From: Escherichia phage AV110
Length of the DNA stretch: 64,000 nt
Direction: 5' to 3' (one strand)
Sequence record: OR352940.1
Shown here: positions 12,267 to 47,612 of the stretch, piece after piece
Numbering within the stretch: position 1 is the first letter of the stretch
Layout: each line of letters starts with the position of its first letter
Made by a program: the position numbers and the translations under genes
The notes under the pieces: generated by a model
Databases searched by the model: none
What the model was told of the DNA's origin: nothing
The model's input: only the letters and a program-made list of their open reading frames with translations

Positions 12267-12308
12267 TTAATTTGATGTGGTCATTATAACCACATCGTGT
12301 TAAAGCGT

Positions 12309-17056: not shown

Positions 17057-17110
17057 TTCATAGGTCTATTATATCATAATATTTAGAGACCTATCTTAAA
17101 GCACGAGATA

Positions 17111-18239: not shown

Positions 18240-18302
18240 GATATTTTCCTCATTTTAAGACGATAGGAAGATAATAACATGTCTTCCTATCGTTGTACAT
18301 TA

Positions 18303-26253: not shown

Positions 26254-26310
26254 AATATTTTCCTCTCGTTAAGATAGATTCATTATACTCCAACCATCCT
26301 TGGTTGTACA

Positions 26311-27306
26311 TCATTCCTTAAGAAGTTTTACTACTTGAATAAGATTAGCTCGTTCTGTTTTATTTTTACCATTTAAGCCTGCTAATCGTGAGATTTCATC
26401 GTCGGTCTGTTGAATAGTTACATTAAGTTCGTTAATCAAAGCTTCAAAGTATTTGATTTGCTCAGCATGTTTTGATTCAAATTTCTGAACAGGAATAACG
26501 TCTTGGTTTAGTTCATCAATAAGGTCTTTAAGAGCATCTTCTTGGTTGATATCATATTCAACTTCTTTTATTTCTTCAACGAGCTCGTCTTTATATCTAA
26601 CGTCTTTTAGTCCTGGTGCTGGTCCTGAAATCTCTTCTTTAAGAGTACAAACATACCCAATACGGTATCCAATGCCGTCTCGCTTGATATCAACTTCGTC
26701 GATAAATCCACAATGTTTAAGACCAGAGCCGATTAGGTCAAAATATCCTTGACGTCGTCCTTCAAACGTTACACGAACTACTAAGACAGTTTTGCCACCA
26801 ACCTTTTGAAGCTCACATTTATAAAAGTCTGTTGAACCTGAATAACTTGGATGAGTTTTAAAGTTCATCTGACGATCTAGGCCCATTTGTAAACGTGCTG
26901 TTACGGCCATAAAACGTGTTTGGTTCTCGTTAAGATGAGCAACAATCCATTTCAAAGGCATTTTACACTGTTCACGACCGAACAAATCGGTACGTCCTAG
27001 ATTACGCAGGATGTTGTTAGAGTTAATCATCGACAGAACGTTAAGTTTATTCAGCGCGCTGAAGATTCCATCAGCCATTGATTTTCCATAACCTTTACAC
27101 GCTTTAATAAGTGCTCGCGGCAGATTAGTATAGATTTCAGACGGCATATGAAAATCAAATTTACTAGTCAGTAATTGATGAACTTGGATAGCAATTTGCT
27201 CATAATTAAGTGCTCTGCGATCGTTATGGTCTTTAAACCACACTTTAATCTGTGAAGCACATAAACCGTTAATTTCATGTTTTACCGCATCAGATGTAAT
27301 GCTCAT
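26311..27306 (-). CDS. hypothetical protein (331 aa) with C-terminal coiled coil
   Basis: Long ORF; architecture resembles the upstream 316-aa ORF. Confidence 0.6.
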   Translation of the reverse strand: MSITSDAVKHEINGLCASQIKVWFKDHNDRRALNYEQIAIQVHQLLTSKFDFHMPSEIYTNLPRALIKACKGYGKSMADGIFSALNKLNVLSMINSNNILRNLGRTDLFGREQCKMPLKWIVAHLNENQTRFMAVTARLQMGLDRQMNFKTHPSYSGSTDFYKCELQKVGGKTVLVVRVTFEGRRQGYFDLIGSGLKHCGFIDEVDIKRDGIGYRIGYVCTLKEEISGPAPGLKDVRYKDELVEEIKEVEYDINQEDALKDLIDELNQDVIPVQKFESKHAEQIKYFEALINELNVTIQQTDDEISRLAGLNGKNKTERANLIQVVKLLKE

Positions 27307-27896: not shown

Positions 27897-27923
27897 GTTT
27901 TACCTCCAGTAGTTGATAGGTCT

Positions 27924-27952
27924 ATAATAACATAACTATAGACCTTGTAAAC
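27924..27952 (-). promoter_or_regulatory. sigma70-type early promoter (GTTTAC-N17-TATTAT on minus strand)
   Basis: rc of gtaaac at ~27947-27952 and of ataata at ~27924-27929; inside ATAGGTCT..AGACCTAT-like palindrome. Confidence 0.45.
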
Positions 27953-27954
27953 AA

Positions 27955-28242
27955 CTAAAAGAAACTTTTTTCGGTATTTTTTCCACTGAACCAAACAGAC
28001 TTCGGGATTTTTTGTAATTTTTCAGATTTAAGTTTCTCTTCCTGTTCTTTCTTATATACACCCTTGTCGTACTGGAGCATCTCTATGGCATTCTTTTGCA
28101 AACGATCTAAGGTAATTAAGGCTTTAGTTTTTCCTTTCAAGGAAGAGTCCTGGCGAACCTCCTCACTATATTGCATCGTAGAACTAACCATACGATGAGC
28201 ATACAGTTCGACTGCGGCTTTATTTTTTTGCATAAAATCCAT
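27955..28242 (-). CDS. hypothetical protein (95 aa)
   Basis: ORF. Confidence 0.45.
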   Translation of the reverse strand: MDFMQKNKAAVELYAHRMVSSTMQYSEEVRQDSSLKGKTKALITLDRLQKNAIEMLQYDKGVYKKEQEEKLKSEKLQKIPKSVWFSGKNTEKSFF

Positions 28243-28379
28243 AACATATCCTCTTTGATTTGTACATCATTATTTTAAATATTTCTATGCCCTCAGTAGG
28301 TTCCTGGTGTCCTTCTTTGAGGTAAGCCATATGATTATTCATCTTTATGGCTTTTGTTACCTCAGAACTTCCTATAAGC

Positions 28380-29381
28380 TTATTTCAGTAAAGTTACTTC
28401 AGAGATTTCCTCCCAACCATCTTTATCAGTTGAAATAAAATCTGCTACATAAAGAGCGGTACGTAATGATACATTGCGAAGACGAGATACATTAGCCTTC
28501 ATCCAGGACAATGCTTTATACGTTTCTGCATCAGTCAGACCACGTTTCTGCATCATGTCAGTAGATAATATTACATCTTCAACTCGAACCATAATCTCTT
28601 CATTAGAGTGTACTCCAAGGTCGAGATACACTGAGCGAGATACTAAAGCTTGAAGGTGTGGAGCAAGTTTCGAACCGCGTTCTAACTCTTTATCGATATC
28701 AACGTTTGTAATGAAAACGATAGTACCTTCAAACTCAAATTCTTTATCAATACCCTTATCATCGAGATAAGATGACGCAGTGCTCCAACAAACTTTGCGT
28801 TTATCTCCAGTATCTAATGCTGCTTTAAGAAGATTCAAGATGTCCATATCTGAGAATACGTCAACGTCATCGATTAAGAGAACGCTGTCTGCATCACGGT
28901 TGAGCCAAAGTTGTTCGTAAAGGCCAATACCAGAGATTTTACCATTAATGCTTTTGTATTTGATGAAACCATTATCATTAGCATTATTAAGTGCTTTATC
29001 CAGAGAATACGTCTTACCAATACCGGCTGCACCTGAAATAATGAGTGAACGAATTTTGCCATCGATAATGCCATTCGTCATCATGTTCATTACTTTAAAG
29101 CGTTTGTTGATACGAGTTTTCATATCTTCAGTGCTTTCAACAACTGCAACTGGTGATGTCTCAACTCCTTCCATTACGATGTCTGATTTGAAGACCCATA
29201 CTCCACGTTCAGAACCATCAATCATAACGAAAATTTTACCGTCACCTAAGTGGGAACATTCAGGATTAAGCTTTGCTGGGAACCAGGTCTTTGTGGCAAC
29301 ATAAGAACCAGAGATTTCGTTATTACGATAGATACCTTTTTTGATTTGAACGTTGAACATTTTATTCTCCAATTTACTCAT
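28380..29381 (-). CDS. P-loop ATPase (333 aa)
   Basis: Walker A GAAGIGKTY, Walker B LLIDDVD. Confidence 0.65.
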   Translation of the reverse strand: MSKLENKMFNVQIKKGIYRNNEISGSYVATKTWFPAKLNPECSHLGDGKIFVMIDGSERGVWVFKSDIVMEGVETSPVAVVESTEDMKTRINKRFKVMNMMTNGIIDGKIRSLIISGAAGIGKTYSLDKALNNANDNGFIKYKSINGKISGIGLYEQLWLNRDADSVLLIDDVDVFSDMDILNLLKAALDTGDKRKVCWSTASSYLDDKGIDKEFEFEGTIVFITNVDIDKELERGSKLAPHLQALVSRSVYLDLGVHSNEEIMVRVEDVILSTDMMQKRGLTDAETYKALSWMKANVSRLRNVSLRTALYVADFISTDKDGWEEISEVTLLK

Positions 29382-29477
29382 TTCGTTTCGATAGGTCTAT
29401 AATAACATATCCTAAAAGCATGTACACTACTTTTTTAAATATTTTAACCCCCTAAAGGGACCCGAAGGTCCCCACAT

Positions 29478-31973: not shown

Positions 31974-32106
31974 TACCATACTCGTTTCAATAAGATTCAC
32001 TATGCCGTTTACCATGTTATAAGTAAACATCGGATAATTATATTGTACTACAACATAAGCGATAAGCAAAAGTTTCATTTTGGTCTCCGTTCGTTTTGAT
32101 AGGACC

Positions 32107-32136
32107 ACTATAACATAGTCCTATCAAGATGTAAAC
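32107..32136 (-). promoter_or_regulatory. sigma70-type early promoter (GTTTAC-N18-TATAGT) inside conserved palindrome cassette
   Basis: rc of gtaaac 32131-32136 and actata 32107-32112; cassette ATAGGACCACTATAACATAGTCCTAT. Confidence 0.5.
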
Positions 32137-36449: not shown

Positions 36450-36510
36450 TTTGATTTCTCCTCTAGTTGTCATGTCTATAGTAACACAACTAGAGGAGAA
36501 GTAAACTACT

Positions 36511-38419: not shown

Positions 38420-38747
38420 ATTATTTCTCTTAAGGTTGGGGCCATTCCATGGCGCATGAATTGTCCATTTCTGTATTTACCCATTACCGCACTTGGGCTC
38501 GACCTTATTACAGGTTGGCGGGAATCCCTCATAGAATCATGAGGTCCAGGTTGTTCCCATTTTATTTGAATGTAAATATTTTTGCCACGCGTTTACGAAT
38601 TATACCAAAAAACACGTGGCAATTCACAGTATTCGGCGATTAAATGTTGATCAGCAAATTTAGATACTAAAGTCAAATTAATATAAGTCATTTACCCATC
38701 CAAGTAATTATGAATATACTATCACAATTCTAGGAGAAAGTAAACTG

Positions 38748-39050
38748 TTATTTACCTTTAATTACTTTAGCTGCTTCGATAGCCGCTTGCTGAAGGTCAT
38801 CCATAGACATACCGAATTTAGAAGCAAAGTTATCAATTTTCTTTTCGACAGCATTCAAAGGCTTGGCCTGTTTACCTTCATTAGCGCCAGGAAGAGCGAG
38901 AATACGCTCTTTGTCAATATAAAGGCTTACAAGTTTCTTACGGTCTTTATCGGACAAATCATGAAATGAATGGGCCTTTTTATTTATAGCGGCTTCTAAT
39001 TTACCTGCACTCACTCGAGCTTCAGTAATAAATTCTTGATATGTTTTCAT
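38748..39050 (-). CDS. capsid-targeted internal protein (IPII/IPIII-like)
   Basis: N-terminal capsid-targeting sequence MKTYQEFITE (T4 IP consensus MKTYQEFIAE, cleaved by prohead protease after Glu). Confidence 0.65.
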   Translation of the reverse strand: MKTYQEFITEARVSAGKLEAAINKKAHSFHDLSDKDRKKLVSLYIDKERILALPGANEGKQAKPLNAVEKKIDNFASKFGMSMDDLQQAAIEAAKVIKGK

Positions 39051-39076
39051 TTTTGTTCCTATTGTTTTAATTTATG

Positions 39077-39391
39077 TTATTCTTTAGGGAAGTTTTTAGA
39101 GTATGCGTCATAAAGTTTATTACCGATGCGACGGAAAACTTTAGCTGCAAAACGGTTTTCAGGGTTTTTAATCATGATTTGCATCATGTAAGTTCCTGCA
39201 TCCGAAAGAGCTTCTTCATAGTACCCATTAATTTCTTTAAGAGTCCTACGTTTACCACCAGGACCATCGACAGTAATTTTCCATTTACCTGTAGAAGTGC
39301 GGCTCGGTGGCTCAACTTGTTCAATCCAAATATAACCACCTTCAACGCGTTGGTTGGCGGATTCTGCAATAAATTCTTTATACGTTTTCAT
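39077..39391 (-). CDS. capsid-targeted internal protein
   Basis: N-terminal MKTYKEFIAE CTS. Confidence 0.65.
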   Translation of the reverse strand: MKTYKEFIAESANQRVEGGYIWIEQVEPPSRTSTGKWKITVDGPGGKRRTLKEINGYYEEALSDAGTYMMQIMIKNPENRFAAKVFRRIGNKLYDAYSKNFPKE

Positions 39392-40135: not shown

Positions 40136-40193
40136 AATTTCCTCCAAGTAGTTGATGAATGTATAGTATCAAAACCCTTGGAGGAAGTAAACA

Positions 40194-40960: not shown

Positions 40961-40994
40961 AATACCTCCCACGTTTATAGGAGGTATTTATTAC

Positions 40995-41453: not shown

Positions 41454-41694
41454 CTCGGTCCCATGATTTGGCCATTAATTCGGACATAAATTCTTCAATG
41501 CGCGTTTCTTTAGATGGACTTTCACTATTAGAGACCGCAAGTTTGTAATCTGCAATAGGACAGAACATATCAAGGTCCATATTAAGGACGTCTTTGATTT
41601 TTTCTTCTGACACATCTTTATCGTATGTGTACAGATAACTATCACATGATTCTGATTTAATGTAAATTGCTATACTCATCTCAAATTCCTGCAT
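41443..41694 (-). CDS. hypothetical acidic protein (83 aa)
   Basis: ORF. Confidence 0.45.
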   Translation of the reverse strand: MQEFEMSIAIYIKSESCDSYLYTYDKDVSEEKIKDVLNMDLDMFCPIADYKLAVSNSESPSKETRIEEFMSELMAKSWDRDDE

Positions 41695-42167
41695 TCGGTA
41701 ATAAAACGTTCAACTTCATTATTCTTGGCTTTTATCTTGTCTTTATGTTCTTGTAAACTACTTTTAATAAGATTAATAATGATGGCGGCGGTACCGCCGC
41801 CAATGATGCCACCAACAACACTTATTATACTAGATGCTAATAAGATAGCAATAATATCAACAAAACCGAAAGAACTCACCTTAGTACTAAAAAACCATAC
41901 CGACGGTACAAATATAATCCATCCTGTTATCCATTGGCACTTATTGAAAAACTTTTCAAGCTCAGCTTGAGTTGTTCGTATTACTTCATCGATAGGTTGA
42001 TATCCATTAATGTATCTGTTCACAATAATACCTGCTGGCTGGTCGATTTTAAATTCTTGGCAAATATGTTTCACTAAGTAGAATGGACAGGATGTCCATT
42101 CTACTGAATAGTATGAAATACCTTCGTTGCCATCGTCTATATTAGACCAATATGTTTTGTTAATCAT
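41676..42167 (-). CDS. membrane protein, FIKECR-tail family member
   Basis: TM and glycine-zipper segment; C-terminus ...ERFITECRNLR. Confidence 0.5.
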   Translation of the reverse strand: MINKTYWSNIDDGNEGISYYSVEWTSCPFYLVKHICQEFKIDQPAGIIVNRYINGYQPIDEVIRTTQAELEKFFNKCQWITGWIIFVPSVWFFSTKVSSFGFVDIIAILLASSIISVVGGIIGGGTAAIIINLIKSSLQEHKDKIKAKNNEVERFITECRNLR

Positions 42168-43160: not shown

Positions 43161-43188
43161 AATATTCTCCTCATGTTTTAATAGGACT

Positions 43189-43218
43189 ACTATAACATAG
43201 TCCTATAATTGTGTAAAC
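43189..43218 (-). promoter_or_regulatory. sigma70-type early promoter (GTTTAC-N18-TATAGT) in conserved palindrome cassette
   Basis: ATAGGACTACTATAACATAGTCCTAT cassette; rc gtaaac at 43213-43218. Confidence 0.5.
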
Positions 43219-44215: not shown

Positions 44216-44467
44216 TTAAATTTCACGACATGCGATATCATATTCATCCCAGAGGTCGTCATGTGAAGCCTCTACCAATGGAACGATTGTACCGTTTATG
44301 TCTTCATTATAAGGACAAATTGTACAGTGCGCATCTTCGAATCGGATGCCTTTGTGTTCAGATTTTTTATAACGCATATCGAATATCTTTGCAAACTTTT
44401 CACGAGTAATAGTTTTAGCAACTACTTCGGTTCCGATACTTTCGTAATAAATCATTGTGGACTCCAT
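44216..44467 (-). CDS. hypothetical protein (83 aa)
   Basis: ORF downstream of early promoter. Confidence 0.45.
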   Translation of the reverse strand: MESTMIYYESIGTEVVAKTITREKFAKIFDMRYKKSEHKGIRFEDAHCTICPYNEDINGTIVPLVEASHDDLWDEYDIACREI

Positions 44468-44483
44468 TTGTTTTGATAGGACT

Positions 44484-44513
44484 ACTATAACATAGCCCTA
44501 TCTTGTTGTAAAC
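44484..44513 (-). promoter_or_regulatory. sigma70-type early promoter in conserved palindrome cassette
   Basis: ATAGGACTACTATAACATAGCCCTAT; rc gtaaac 44508-44513, actata 44484-44489. Confidence 0.5.
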
Positions 44514-47554: not shown

Positions 47555-47582
47555 TTTGTTTTCCTCTTGATTTGATAGGACT

Positions 47583-47612
47583 ACTATAACATAAACTTAC
47601 TTAGATGTAAAT
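47583..47612 (-). promoter_or_regulatory. sigma70-type early promoter in conserved palindrome cassette
   Basis: GATAGGACTACTATAACATAAAC...; rc gtaaat 47607-47612, actata 47583-47588. Confidence 0.45.

Follow-up and report, generated by a model that had tools for sequence, protein, structure and literature searches.

We studied a short palindromic element at positions 43181-43218 of a 64,000-nucleotide stretch of Escherichia phage AV110 DNA (OR352940.1), hereafter the window. The window is 96-98% identical to the Mosigvirus (RB69-like) coliphages vB_EQ1, PhAPEC2, APCEc01, and mogra, has a G+C content of 35-39%, and carries its genes on the minus strand up to about 55.8 kb. Its T4 counterpart is the part of the early region that runs between genes 62/44 and gene 4, and it holds many small open reading frames (ORFs) of unknown function.

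The element is repeated within the window. The 26-mer ATAGGACTACTATAACATAGTCCTAT was found on the plus strand at 32099, 43181, 44476, and 51859, with 0 or 1 mismatch each, and its expected number of occurrences was 0 (100 dinucleotide-preserving shuffles). An earlier reading made from the letters alone (the sequence-only reading) had listed five near-identical copies, at about 32101, 43181, 44478, 47575, and 51861. Four of them stand, three of these at coordinates shifted by about 2 nt, but the one at 47575 is a half copy, which is not palindromic because its 5' arm reads AAGTTTA and not AGGACTA. On the minus strand, the full copies read GTTTAC(A)-spacer-ATAGGACTA-TGT-TATAGT-AGTCCTAT-CAAAAC; a Shine-Dalgarno (SD) sequence and an ATG come next. 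Homology among the full copies spans -36 to about +12, i.e., 45 to 50 nt. As had been proposed, an inverted repeat surrounds the -10 element in the full copies. The diverged copies listed near 17060, 27915, 29391, and 52215 all exist as well, the first three with arms of the GGTCT/AGACC type and the last with GGATGATGG/CTATCATTC, but the copy at 29391 lacks arm complementarity.

All copies lie upstream of minus-strand genes. They belong to a larger set of about 20 early elements between 17 and 53 kb of the window, intergenic in position, with an AT-rich (A-rich) tract upstream and the SD sequence and ATG 20 to 30 nt downstream. The folding energy of the copies ranges from -12.7 to -18.3 kcal/mol, with z-scores of -3.5 to -6.6. 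Perfect hairpins (stem of at least 8 bp, loop of 4 to 24 nt) are in excess throughout the window (49 versus 26.6 ± 5.5 in Markov-random sequence), and 10 of the 49 enclose the -10 element of a predicted promoter, where about 1% would be expected. A search of the whole window against Rfam at the gathering threshold returned two tRNAs only and no known RNA family at the elements.

The repeated element is a predicted early promoter

A promoter scan of the copies identified TTTACA-N17-TATAGT with an extended -10 TG (10 of 12 matches), and GTTTAC-N18-TATAGT is present in all four full copies. The hexamers, their spacing, the TGn motif, the A-rich upstream tract, and the distance to the SD sequence and ATG all point, together with a published RB69 prediction, to the T4-type early promoter that the sequence-only reading had suggested. 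Indeed, the early promoters of RB69 were predicted with a hidden Markov model, without reference to hairpins (Nolan 2006, PMC1524935), and the RB69 orthologues of the window copies (Pe:67959, 69254, 57689, 76459, 76812, and 72354) figure in the list supplementing that paper. The sites are therefore the same and were treated there as promoters only: a preference for C at -3 to -1 was noted, and a text search of the paper found no mention of a palindrome, inverted repeat, or dyad. A literature search for global maps of the 5' and 3' ends of T4 or RB69 transcripts found none.

A second promoter family had also been proposed. It is real, its members sharing the variant -35 (A)TGTACA, but it is a -35 variant of the same promoter class and not a separate system. 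The copy at 18290 has a perfect 12-bp palindrome around its -10 element, and those at 26281 and 47800 have a small CCA-AGGA-TGG hairpin within the spacer. At one of its sites, 28255, only a -35-like remnant is followed by the SD sequence and ATG. The segment that holds this TGTACA-family remnant (AATGATGTACAA, directly before SD and ATG) spans 28210-28378, is absent from RB69, and is probably a decayed or recombined cassette.

Complementary arms are a general design of T-even early promoters

With the -10 element as anchor, we aligned the promoter candidates of the window, 20 of early type and 10 of middle type. In about 12 of the 20 early promoters, part of the spacer finds its complement downstream of the -10 element. 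Two arrangements occur: in class A, to which the full copies belong, the spacer (-25 to -16) pairs with -7 to +3, and in class B it pairs with the SD sequence of the next gene. For the proteins encoded downstream of the class A copies, all PHROG matches were to families of unknown function. The arm pairs of the window differ from one promoter to another, comprising GGACTA/TAGTCC, AGGTCTATA/TATAGACCT, ACGATAGGAAGA/TCTTCCTATCGT, GAGAGA/TCTCTC, GAGAGC/GCTCTC, and, at a MotA-type promoter, GATGTGGT/ACCACATC. Among the arms themselves, GGACTA, GGTCT, GGAAGA, GAGAGA, GAGAGC, and GATGTGGT are represented. Nevertheless, cognate 5' and 3' segments pair at -11.95 kcal/mol versus -8.13 ± 0.70 kcal/mol for permuted partners (P<5e-5). 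The published RB69 promoters behaved alike (-10.74 versus -7.41 ± 0.53 kcal/mol, P<2e-5); this set comprised the 26 listed sites within the homologous RB69 segment and was chosen without regard to hairpins.

The same design is seen in RB69, T4, and other T-even relatives, the share of early promoters that have it being about 40%. In T4, where promoters were located by pattern because the GenBank record carries no promoter features, we found the arms GACAAGACTA/TAGTCTTGTC at Pdmd, GATGAGGTA/TACCTCATC at PipI, and TCCTAGAATTGTGA/TCACAATTCTAGGA at ipII, as well as pairings between an anti-SD segment and the SD sequence at regB, denV, dexA, and nrdC.8. We then pooled T4, RB69, APCEc01, and 54 IMG/VR loci of T4-like phages, which gave 193 non-redundant candidates. 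A stem score of at least 7 was reached by 38% of them versus 7.7% of non-cognate pairs, and a score of at least 9 by 18% versus 0.8%. In a scan of the collection for GTTTAC-N15-TGTTATAGT, most of the 120 matches listed (110 distinct) were unrelated chance matches, and only the T4-like subset was informative.

Complementary arms also enclose the -10 element of two minus-strand MotA-box (middle-type) promoters, at 12274-12296 (GATGTGGT/ACCACATC) and at 17060-17094 (ATAGGTCT/AGACCTAT), the latter with a MotA-box-like TGCTTTA upstream. These resemble the "PmSL" elements reported for vibriophage nt-1.

Arms covary and their imperfections favor the sense strand

The 42 non-redundant class A promoters carry 36 distinct arm pairs. 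When 19 class A elements in the same register were aligned, changes on both sides were found in 7 of the 10 pairs. The covariation score was 0.479 versus 0.246 in shuffles, none of 500 shuffles reached it, and the signal collapsed when partners were slid by 1 to 3 columns.

The imperfect pairs are biased toward one strand. On the sense strand, G·T outnumbered A·C by 39 to 12 overall and by 24 to 5 in class A, whereas non-cognate stems, taken as the null, gave 257 to 279. The two "mismatched" copies of the window (elements 44489 and 32112) are both cases of sense-strand wobble: the lone difference of the first from the family is a G·U on the sense RNA, and the 3'-arm difference of the second is a U·G. 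At the position of element 52227, which has two such wobbles, RB69 carries ATCATCC, giving G-C pairs. This pattern fits pairing in the sense transcript and neither a protein reading duplex DNA nor a symmetric cruciform. Taken together, arm variation, covariation, and strand bias argue for an RNA hairpin present only in read-through transcripts and against an operator.

At orthologous e.8-type promoters of several phages (L005, 3540-3600; T4, AF158101, about 70335; L008, 3084; L010, 7152), the arms are ATAGGCTCAT/ATGAGCCTAT, ATGGGCTCAT/ATGAGCCCAT, or ACAGGCTCAT/ATGAGCCTGT. They represent clean double changes of the compensatory kind between genera, all at the same orthologous promoter.

Recombination junctions fall inside the elements

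A recombination hotspot was one of the two explanations that the sequence-only reading had offered for the palindrome, and comparison of the window with APCEc01, RB69, and two IMG/VR contigs (L004 and L005) supports it. Relative to APCEc01 and L004, a chimeric junction is formed by the element at 43181-43218 itself. In APCEc01, two elements enclose an additional 66-aa ORF (APCEc01_170) where the window has one chimera, made of the upstream flank and -35 of the first APCEc01 element and the hairpin, -10, and leader of the second. In L004, the homology with the window breaks at 43207, inside the same element. Similarly, RB69 carries the nrdC.5 gene (972 bp) between two copies of element 26287, of which the window has one chimeric copy, and in L005 elements 47801 and 47588 are fused, the intervening ORF being absent and homology breaking at 47591, inside element 47588. 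A 250-nt insertion/deletion in L005 stops exactly at the -35 of element 45377, and at 48362, before a 167-aa gene, L005 has another cassette in place of the promoter, adjoining a 1.2-kb insertion. At element 29404, homology with RB69 starts at about -15, leaving a recombinant, "broken" hairpin. Both broken copies, 29404 and 47588, are explained by exchanges within the -10/loop.

Overall, the boundary lies inside an element in 7 of 14 distinct events, and the elements cover about 3.5% of the compared DNA. Because they are repeated, the 45- to 50-bp cassettes act as homology patches for the insertion, deletion, and exchange of single ORFs.

At the internal-protein locus (38519-39363), APCEc01, RB69, L004, and L005 have unrelated sequence in place of the gene body, with the upstream junction in the conserved MKTYQEF leader. 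This replacement is the known internal-protein polymorphism of T-even phages.

A predicted promoter within a hairpin that only read-through RNA would carry

These data make it likely that the element is, in an RB69-like phage, a cassette of the kind named PeSL in other T4-like phages (early promoter plus stem-loop; see below), in which the early promoter lies within a hairpin that only read-through RNA would carry and which serves as a patch for exchange. GTTTAC-N17-TGnTATAGT would serve the host sigma-70 RNA polymerase as an immediate-early promoter. Transcription is predicted to begin 7 nt past the -10 element, at the A of CCTATC, which places +1 at the last pairs of the 3' arm. Since the 5' arm lies in the spacer, upstream of the start, the transcript from the own promoter would lack the hairpin. 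A transcript reading through from upstream would instead fold into a hairpin of 10 to 13 bp with the -10 sequence in its loop. Selection would then act on sense-strand pairing, most simply in read-through RNA, and not on a particular DNA sequence.

In class B, the spacer would act as an anti-SD sequence, and the gene is predicted to be translatable only from its own promoter. Partition-function folding of class B elements 48362, 40168, 38721, 36483, 32830, and 19404 gave a probability of the SD sequence being unpaired of at most 0.01 in the read-through RNA versus 0.47 to 0.89 in the own transcript (for regB, 0.00 versus 0.47). An anti-SD core was present in the spacer of 21 of 99 promoters versus 3 of 99 control segments, and the pairing is gene specific (cognate, -13.5 kcal/mol; non-cognate, -10.0 ± 0.6 kcal/mol; P<5e-5).

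In class A, the SD sequence would remain unmasked, and the most likely role of the hairpin is to insulate the downstream cassette against transcripts arriving from upstream. The hairpin may be an attenuator, a stabilizer of the 3' end of the upstream message, or a structure that keeps the pyrimidine-rich start region off the SD sequence. Predicted SD accessibility in class A read-through RNA was 0.44, and it was 0.35 with the 5' arm shuffled (P=0.01, n=41), which hints at the last of these roles. SD sequestration was rejected for the element's own family, as predicted accessibility showed no clear difference between the two kinds of transcript.

Alternatively, the class A hairpin could terminate the upstream transcription unit, the role given to the stem-loops of PeSLs in phages RB49 and phi1, where one stem-loop cut expression of a downstream lacZ about as much as rrnB T1 (PMC2839356). 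We regard this as unlikely. The stem-loop assayed there comes from a family with typically polyG/polyC stems, whereas class A has AU-rich stems that lead into CAAAAC(A)AA, without a run of U, and a terminator scan of the window did not call the class A sites. These properties rule out an intrinsic (Rho-independent) terminator of canonical type. A separate canonical terminator just upstream was found at none of the 42 class A promoters versus 10 of 120 promoters without a hairpin, a difference that is not significant (P=0.065) and gives a weak hint that the hairpin stands in for a terminator; the idea that a class A hairpin and a canonical terminator upstream exclude each other was rejected as only a trend.

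Several points weigh against the reading of the element as a promoter within a read-through hairpin that doubles as an exchange patch. We infer promoter use and read-through transcription from the sequence, and the same applies to promoter activity, to the RNA hairpin in vivo, and to every role suggested for class A. Beyond the published RB69 set, the promoter candidates were picked by a pattern that we defined ourselves. The paired fraction in the alignment of 19 elements (89.5% of cells) is inflated, although the number of pair types is not, because some sequences were picked for a visible hairpin. The P values (for the wobble bias, 3e-5 overall and 1e-4 in class A) are optimistic because clusters share ancestry. 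For class A, the SD sequence is unmasked (probability of being unpaired in read-through and own transcripts, 0.51/0.61, 0.34/0.38, 0.29/0.51, and 0.67/0.34), the predicted protective effect of the hairpin on it is small, the shortage of upstream canonical terminators is only a trend, and the AU-rich stem leads into CAAAAC with no U-tract. Finally, insertions and deletions are expected to favor intergenic DNA anyway.

Two further explanations dispense with an RNA hairpin, and we consider both improbable. In the first, the inverted repeat would extrude from the DNA as a cruciform or single-strand hairpin and either tune promoter melting or attract a structure-specific nuclease or recombinase, which would drive the exchange of cassettes. 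The -10 element does lie in the loop, recombination junctions do lie inside the elements, some in or beside the loop, and for PeSLs a DNA-binding protein on the stem-loop was speculated on and one crossover placed in the loop (Arbiol 2010, PMC2839356). However, because G·T pairs exceed A·C pairs, the opposite strand would be left with A·C mismatches, and only one strand folds well. Moreover, arms of 9 to 12 bp with loops of 6 to 10 nt and AT-rich stems are poor cruciform formers. Junctions were also found at the -35 edge, at +1 to +6, and in the internal-protein leader, as plain homology-driven exchange predicts.

In the second, the hairpins would have no function of their own: cassettes would spread by duplication and recombination, and complementarity would be kept by templated "quasipalindrome correction" during replication. 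Correction of quasipalindromes by template switching is an established mechanism, classically in T4 rII, the presence of near-identical copies in a single genome points to copying or gene conversion in the recent past, and recombination visibly makes and destroys hairpins (elements 29404 and 47588). This explanation nevertheless leaves four observations unaccounted for, namely, the concentration of dyads on promoter -10 elements, the pairing of class B spacers with the SD sequence of the cognate gene, the strand-biased wobbles, and the maintenance of the design from T4 to RB69 at orthologous promoters (regB, denV, ipI/e.8-type) with different sequences.

The operator for a dimeric regulator that the sequence-only reading had proposed, by which a phage or host protein would bind the inverted repeat and repress or activate the promoter set, e.g., for early shut-off, is highly improbable: although the center of the dyad falls on -11/-12, so that a dimer bound there would stand in the way of RNA polymerase, identical arms are found in four to five copies in this genome, and the mechanism of T4 early-promoter shut-off is not completely understood (PMC3014915), the arms vary within the genome and between relatives yet stay complementary, loop length (6 to 19 nt) and register vary, sense-strand G·T pairs are meaningless for a protein reading duplex DNA, and the conserved outer CCTATC, which appears to be a shared start-region consensus of T4-type early promoters, occurs also in promoters without a dyad. 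A fixed-sequence operator was rejected on account of the variable, covarying arms. A palindrome over the -10 element of phage early promoters should thus not be taken as a repressor site.

The read-through hairpin that we favor might be part of something broader, a genome-wide RNA-level switch in T-even early promoters in which read-through transcripts are structured and own transcripts are not; we put this forward tentatively, as a possibility that we doubt somewhat less than termination. In such a switch, class B would silence translation of the read-through copy and so tie the gene strictly to its own immediate-early promoter, and class A would leave the ribosome-binding site accessible or determine where the upstream message has its 3' end. 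Every shuffled ORFan module would then have autonomous expression, and the switch could contribute to the abrupt, incompletely explained shut-off of early protein synthesis.

Relation to known systems

PeSLs were described in RB49 and phi1 as ORFan-associated elements that mediate modular shuffling and form mini-circles, with G-T pairs marked in a figure (Arbiol 2010, PMC2839356), and were later extended to T4/PST and KVP40/nt-1 and proposed to be general in T4-like phages (Comeau 2014, PMC4122927). The elements of the T-even internal-protein locus (Repoila 1994) are, as cited by Arbiol (PMC2839356), AT-rich analogues on T4 early promoters. All sequence-level traits of PeSLs were found in the window: a promoter consensus with a spacing of 17 ± 1, a stable stem-loop, an intergenic AT-rich and SD context, copies before small ORFs, and junctions. 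As in PeSLs, early promoter and stem-loop share one intergenic cassette (about 50 to 100 bp) with AT-rich DNA upstream and SD and ATG downstream, the stem-loop often lies over the -10 element or in the spacer, and the stems include G-T pairs. Each genome has many copies, mostly before ORFans in hyperplastic regions, and where close relatives differ by an insertion, deletion, or replacement, the junctions lie within the cassettes. This likeness is one at the sequence level.

There are also differences. The lineage here is RB69-like (Mosigvirus), the promoter is T4-type (GTTTAC or TGTACA) instead of TTGACA, and the stems are AU-rich (AGGACUA-type) without a U-tract instead of polyG/polyC. In the published T4/PST elements, the stem-loop lies just upstream of the promoter, whereas here the hairpin encloses the -10 element. 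We found no explicit description of PeSLs for RB69-like phages in the literature, older T4 papers on dyads at single early promoters lying outside the scope of the search. What is already known is the kind of cassette and the standing of the orthologous RB69 sites as predicted early promoters. Added here, and not found in the PeSL papers examined, are the covariation of the arms, the sense-strand wobble bias pointing to RNA, and the split between SD-masking and SD-free hairpins.

The second precedent is provided by T4 genes e, soc, 49, and I-TevI, in which the ribosome-binding site is sequestered by a hairpin with a late promoter inside it (McPheeters 1986, as reviewed in PMC3014915). There, too, the promoter stands between the arms, the own transcripts lack the 5' arm, and longer transcripts fold. 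The class B elements of the window (regB, denV, and others) follow the same logic literally. In contrast, the class A stem excludes SD and AUG and leaves predicted SD accessibility unchanged, and the promoters here are early (sigma-70) and not late (gp55). The classical T4 arrangement, which masks the ribosome-binding site in early read-through transcripts, is itself conserved in this phage, at the gene e hairpin (40961-40988). By analogy only, class A hairpins also resemble intercistronic stabilizer hairpins or REP-like elements, since a stem-loop between cistrons could shield the upstream message from 3' exonucleases, but here the hairpin is superimposed on a promoter.

Our data extend the PeSL concept to RB69-like phages, which are widely isolated for phage therapy. 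For annotation, the cassettes mark the starts of transcription units and the likely borders of exchangeable gene modules; for phage engineering, they represent natural, self-contained insertion points.

Table 1. Promoter-associated hairpins and related elements of the window (positions in the window; energies in kcal/mol)
Feature	Position	Strand	Arms and motifs	Remarks
Main element, promoter (-36 to +12)	43171..43218	-	-35 GTTTAC 43218-43213; -10 TATAGT 43194-43189	-12.7, z -3.5; RB69 orthologue Pe:67959
Main element, arms	43181..43206	-	5' arm ATAGGACTA 43206-43198; loop TGTTATAG 43197-43190; 3' arm TAGTCCTAT 43189-43181	
Main element, predicted start	43182	-	+1 = A	
Gene downstream of main element	43160-42855	-		101-aa ORFan; PHROG family of unknown function
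Class A copy	51849..51896	-	hairpin GATAGGACTA/TAGTCCTATC 51858-51885; -10 at 51872-51867	-16.6, z -6.6; upstream of 61/68-aa ORF 51849-51643
Class A copy (element 44489)	44466..44513	-	5' arm ATAGGGCTA; -10 at 44489-44484	-16.0, z -6.1
Class A copy (element 32112)	32089..32136	-	3' arm GGTCC; extended stem TTGATAGGAC/GTCCTATCAA 32096-32127	-18.3, z -5.2
Half copy (element 47588)	47565..47612	-	family -10 and 3' arm; unrelated 5' arm	no hairpin
Class A hairpin with other arms (element 27929)	27918..27945	-	AGGTCTATA/TATAGACCT around -10 TATTAT	
Diverged copy (element 29404)	29381..29428	-	3' arm AGACCTAT; 5' arm non-complementary	
Diverged copy	17060..17094	-	ATAGGTCT/AGACCTAT; 19-nt loop with two -10-like hexamers	upstream of gene 55
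Diverged copy (element 52227)	52204..52251	-	GGATGATGG/CTATCATTC	two G·U wobbles
TGTACA-type element	18260..18293	-	-35 TGTACA; perfect 12-bp palindrome ACGATAGGAAGA/TCTTCCTATCGT around -10 TATTAT	-16.7, z -5.1; "second family"
Element 26287	26264..26311	-	spacer hairpin CCAA-GGATGG-TTGG	"second family"
Element 47801	47778..47825	-	-35 TGTACA; spacer hairpin CGCCA-AGGA-TGGTG	"second family"
Class B element, regB	36456..36500	-	spacer TTCTCCTCTAGTTGT pairs with SD-containing ACAACTAGAGGAGAA; -10 TACTAT in loop	longest short-range inverted repeat in the window
Class B element, denV	40139..40186	-	spacer TTCCTCCAAG pairs with SD-containing CTTGGAGGAA	
Gene e (lysozyme) leader hairpin	40961..40988	-	AATACCTCC/GGAGGTATT; late-promoter-like TATAAAC in loop	positive control

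Other features of the window

A 560-bp segment (49656-50214) is absent from APCEc01, RB69, and L005. It holds most of ORF 49652-50185, which encodes a T5orf172/MUG113 (GIY-YIG-like) domain, adjoins two tRNA genes (50207-50280 and 50312-50383), and looks like a homing-endonuclease-type insertion, similar to segB in the T4 tRNA cluster.

A plus-strand promoter-like sequence, TTTACA-N18-TATAGT, was found at 55771-55800, in the intergenic region that separates the divergent genes 4 and 53.

Finally, the coding sequence of an e.2-like membrane protein (ORF 41676-42167) contains two strong palindromes, at 42077-42105 and 41783-41802, comprising a perfect 12-bp stem with a 5-nt loop (AGTAGAATGGAC/GTCCATTCTACT) and the GC-rich TGGCGGCGGTACCGCCGCCA. 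The homologous gene of phage mogra carries an annotated repeat_region at the corresponding position, matched by coordinates only and not by alignment.

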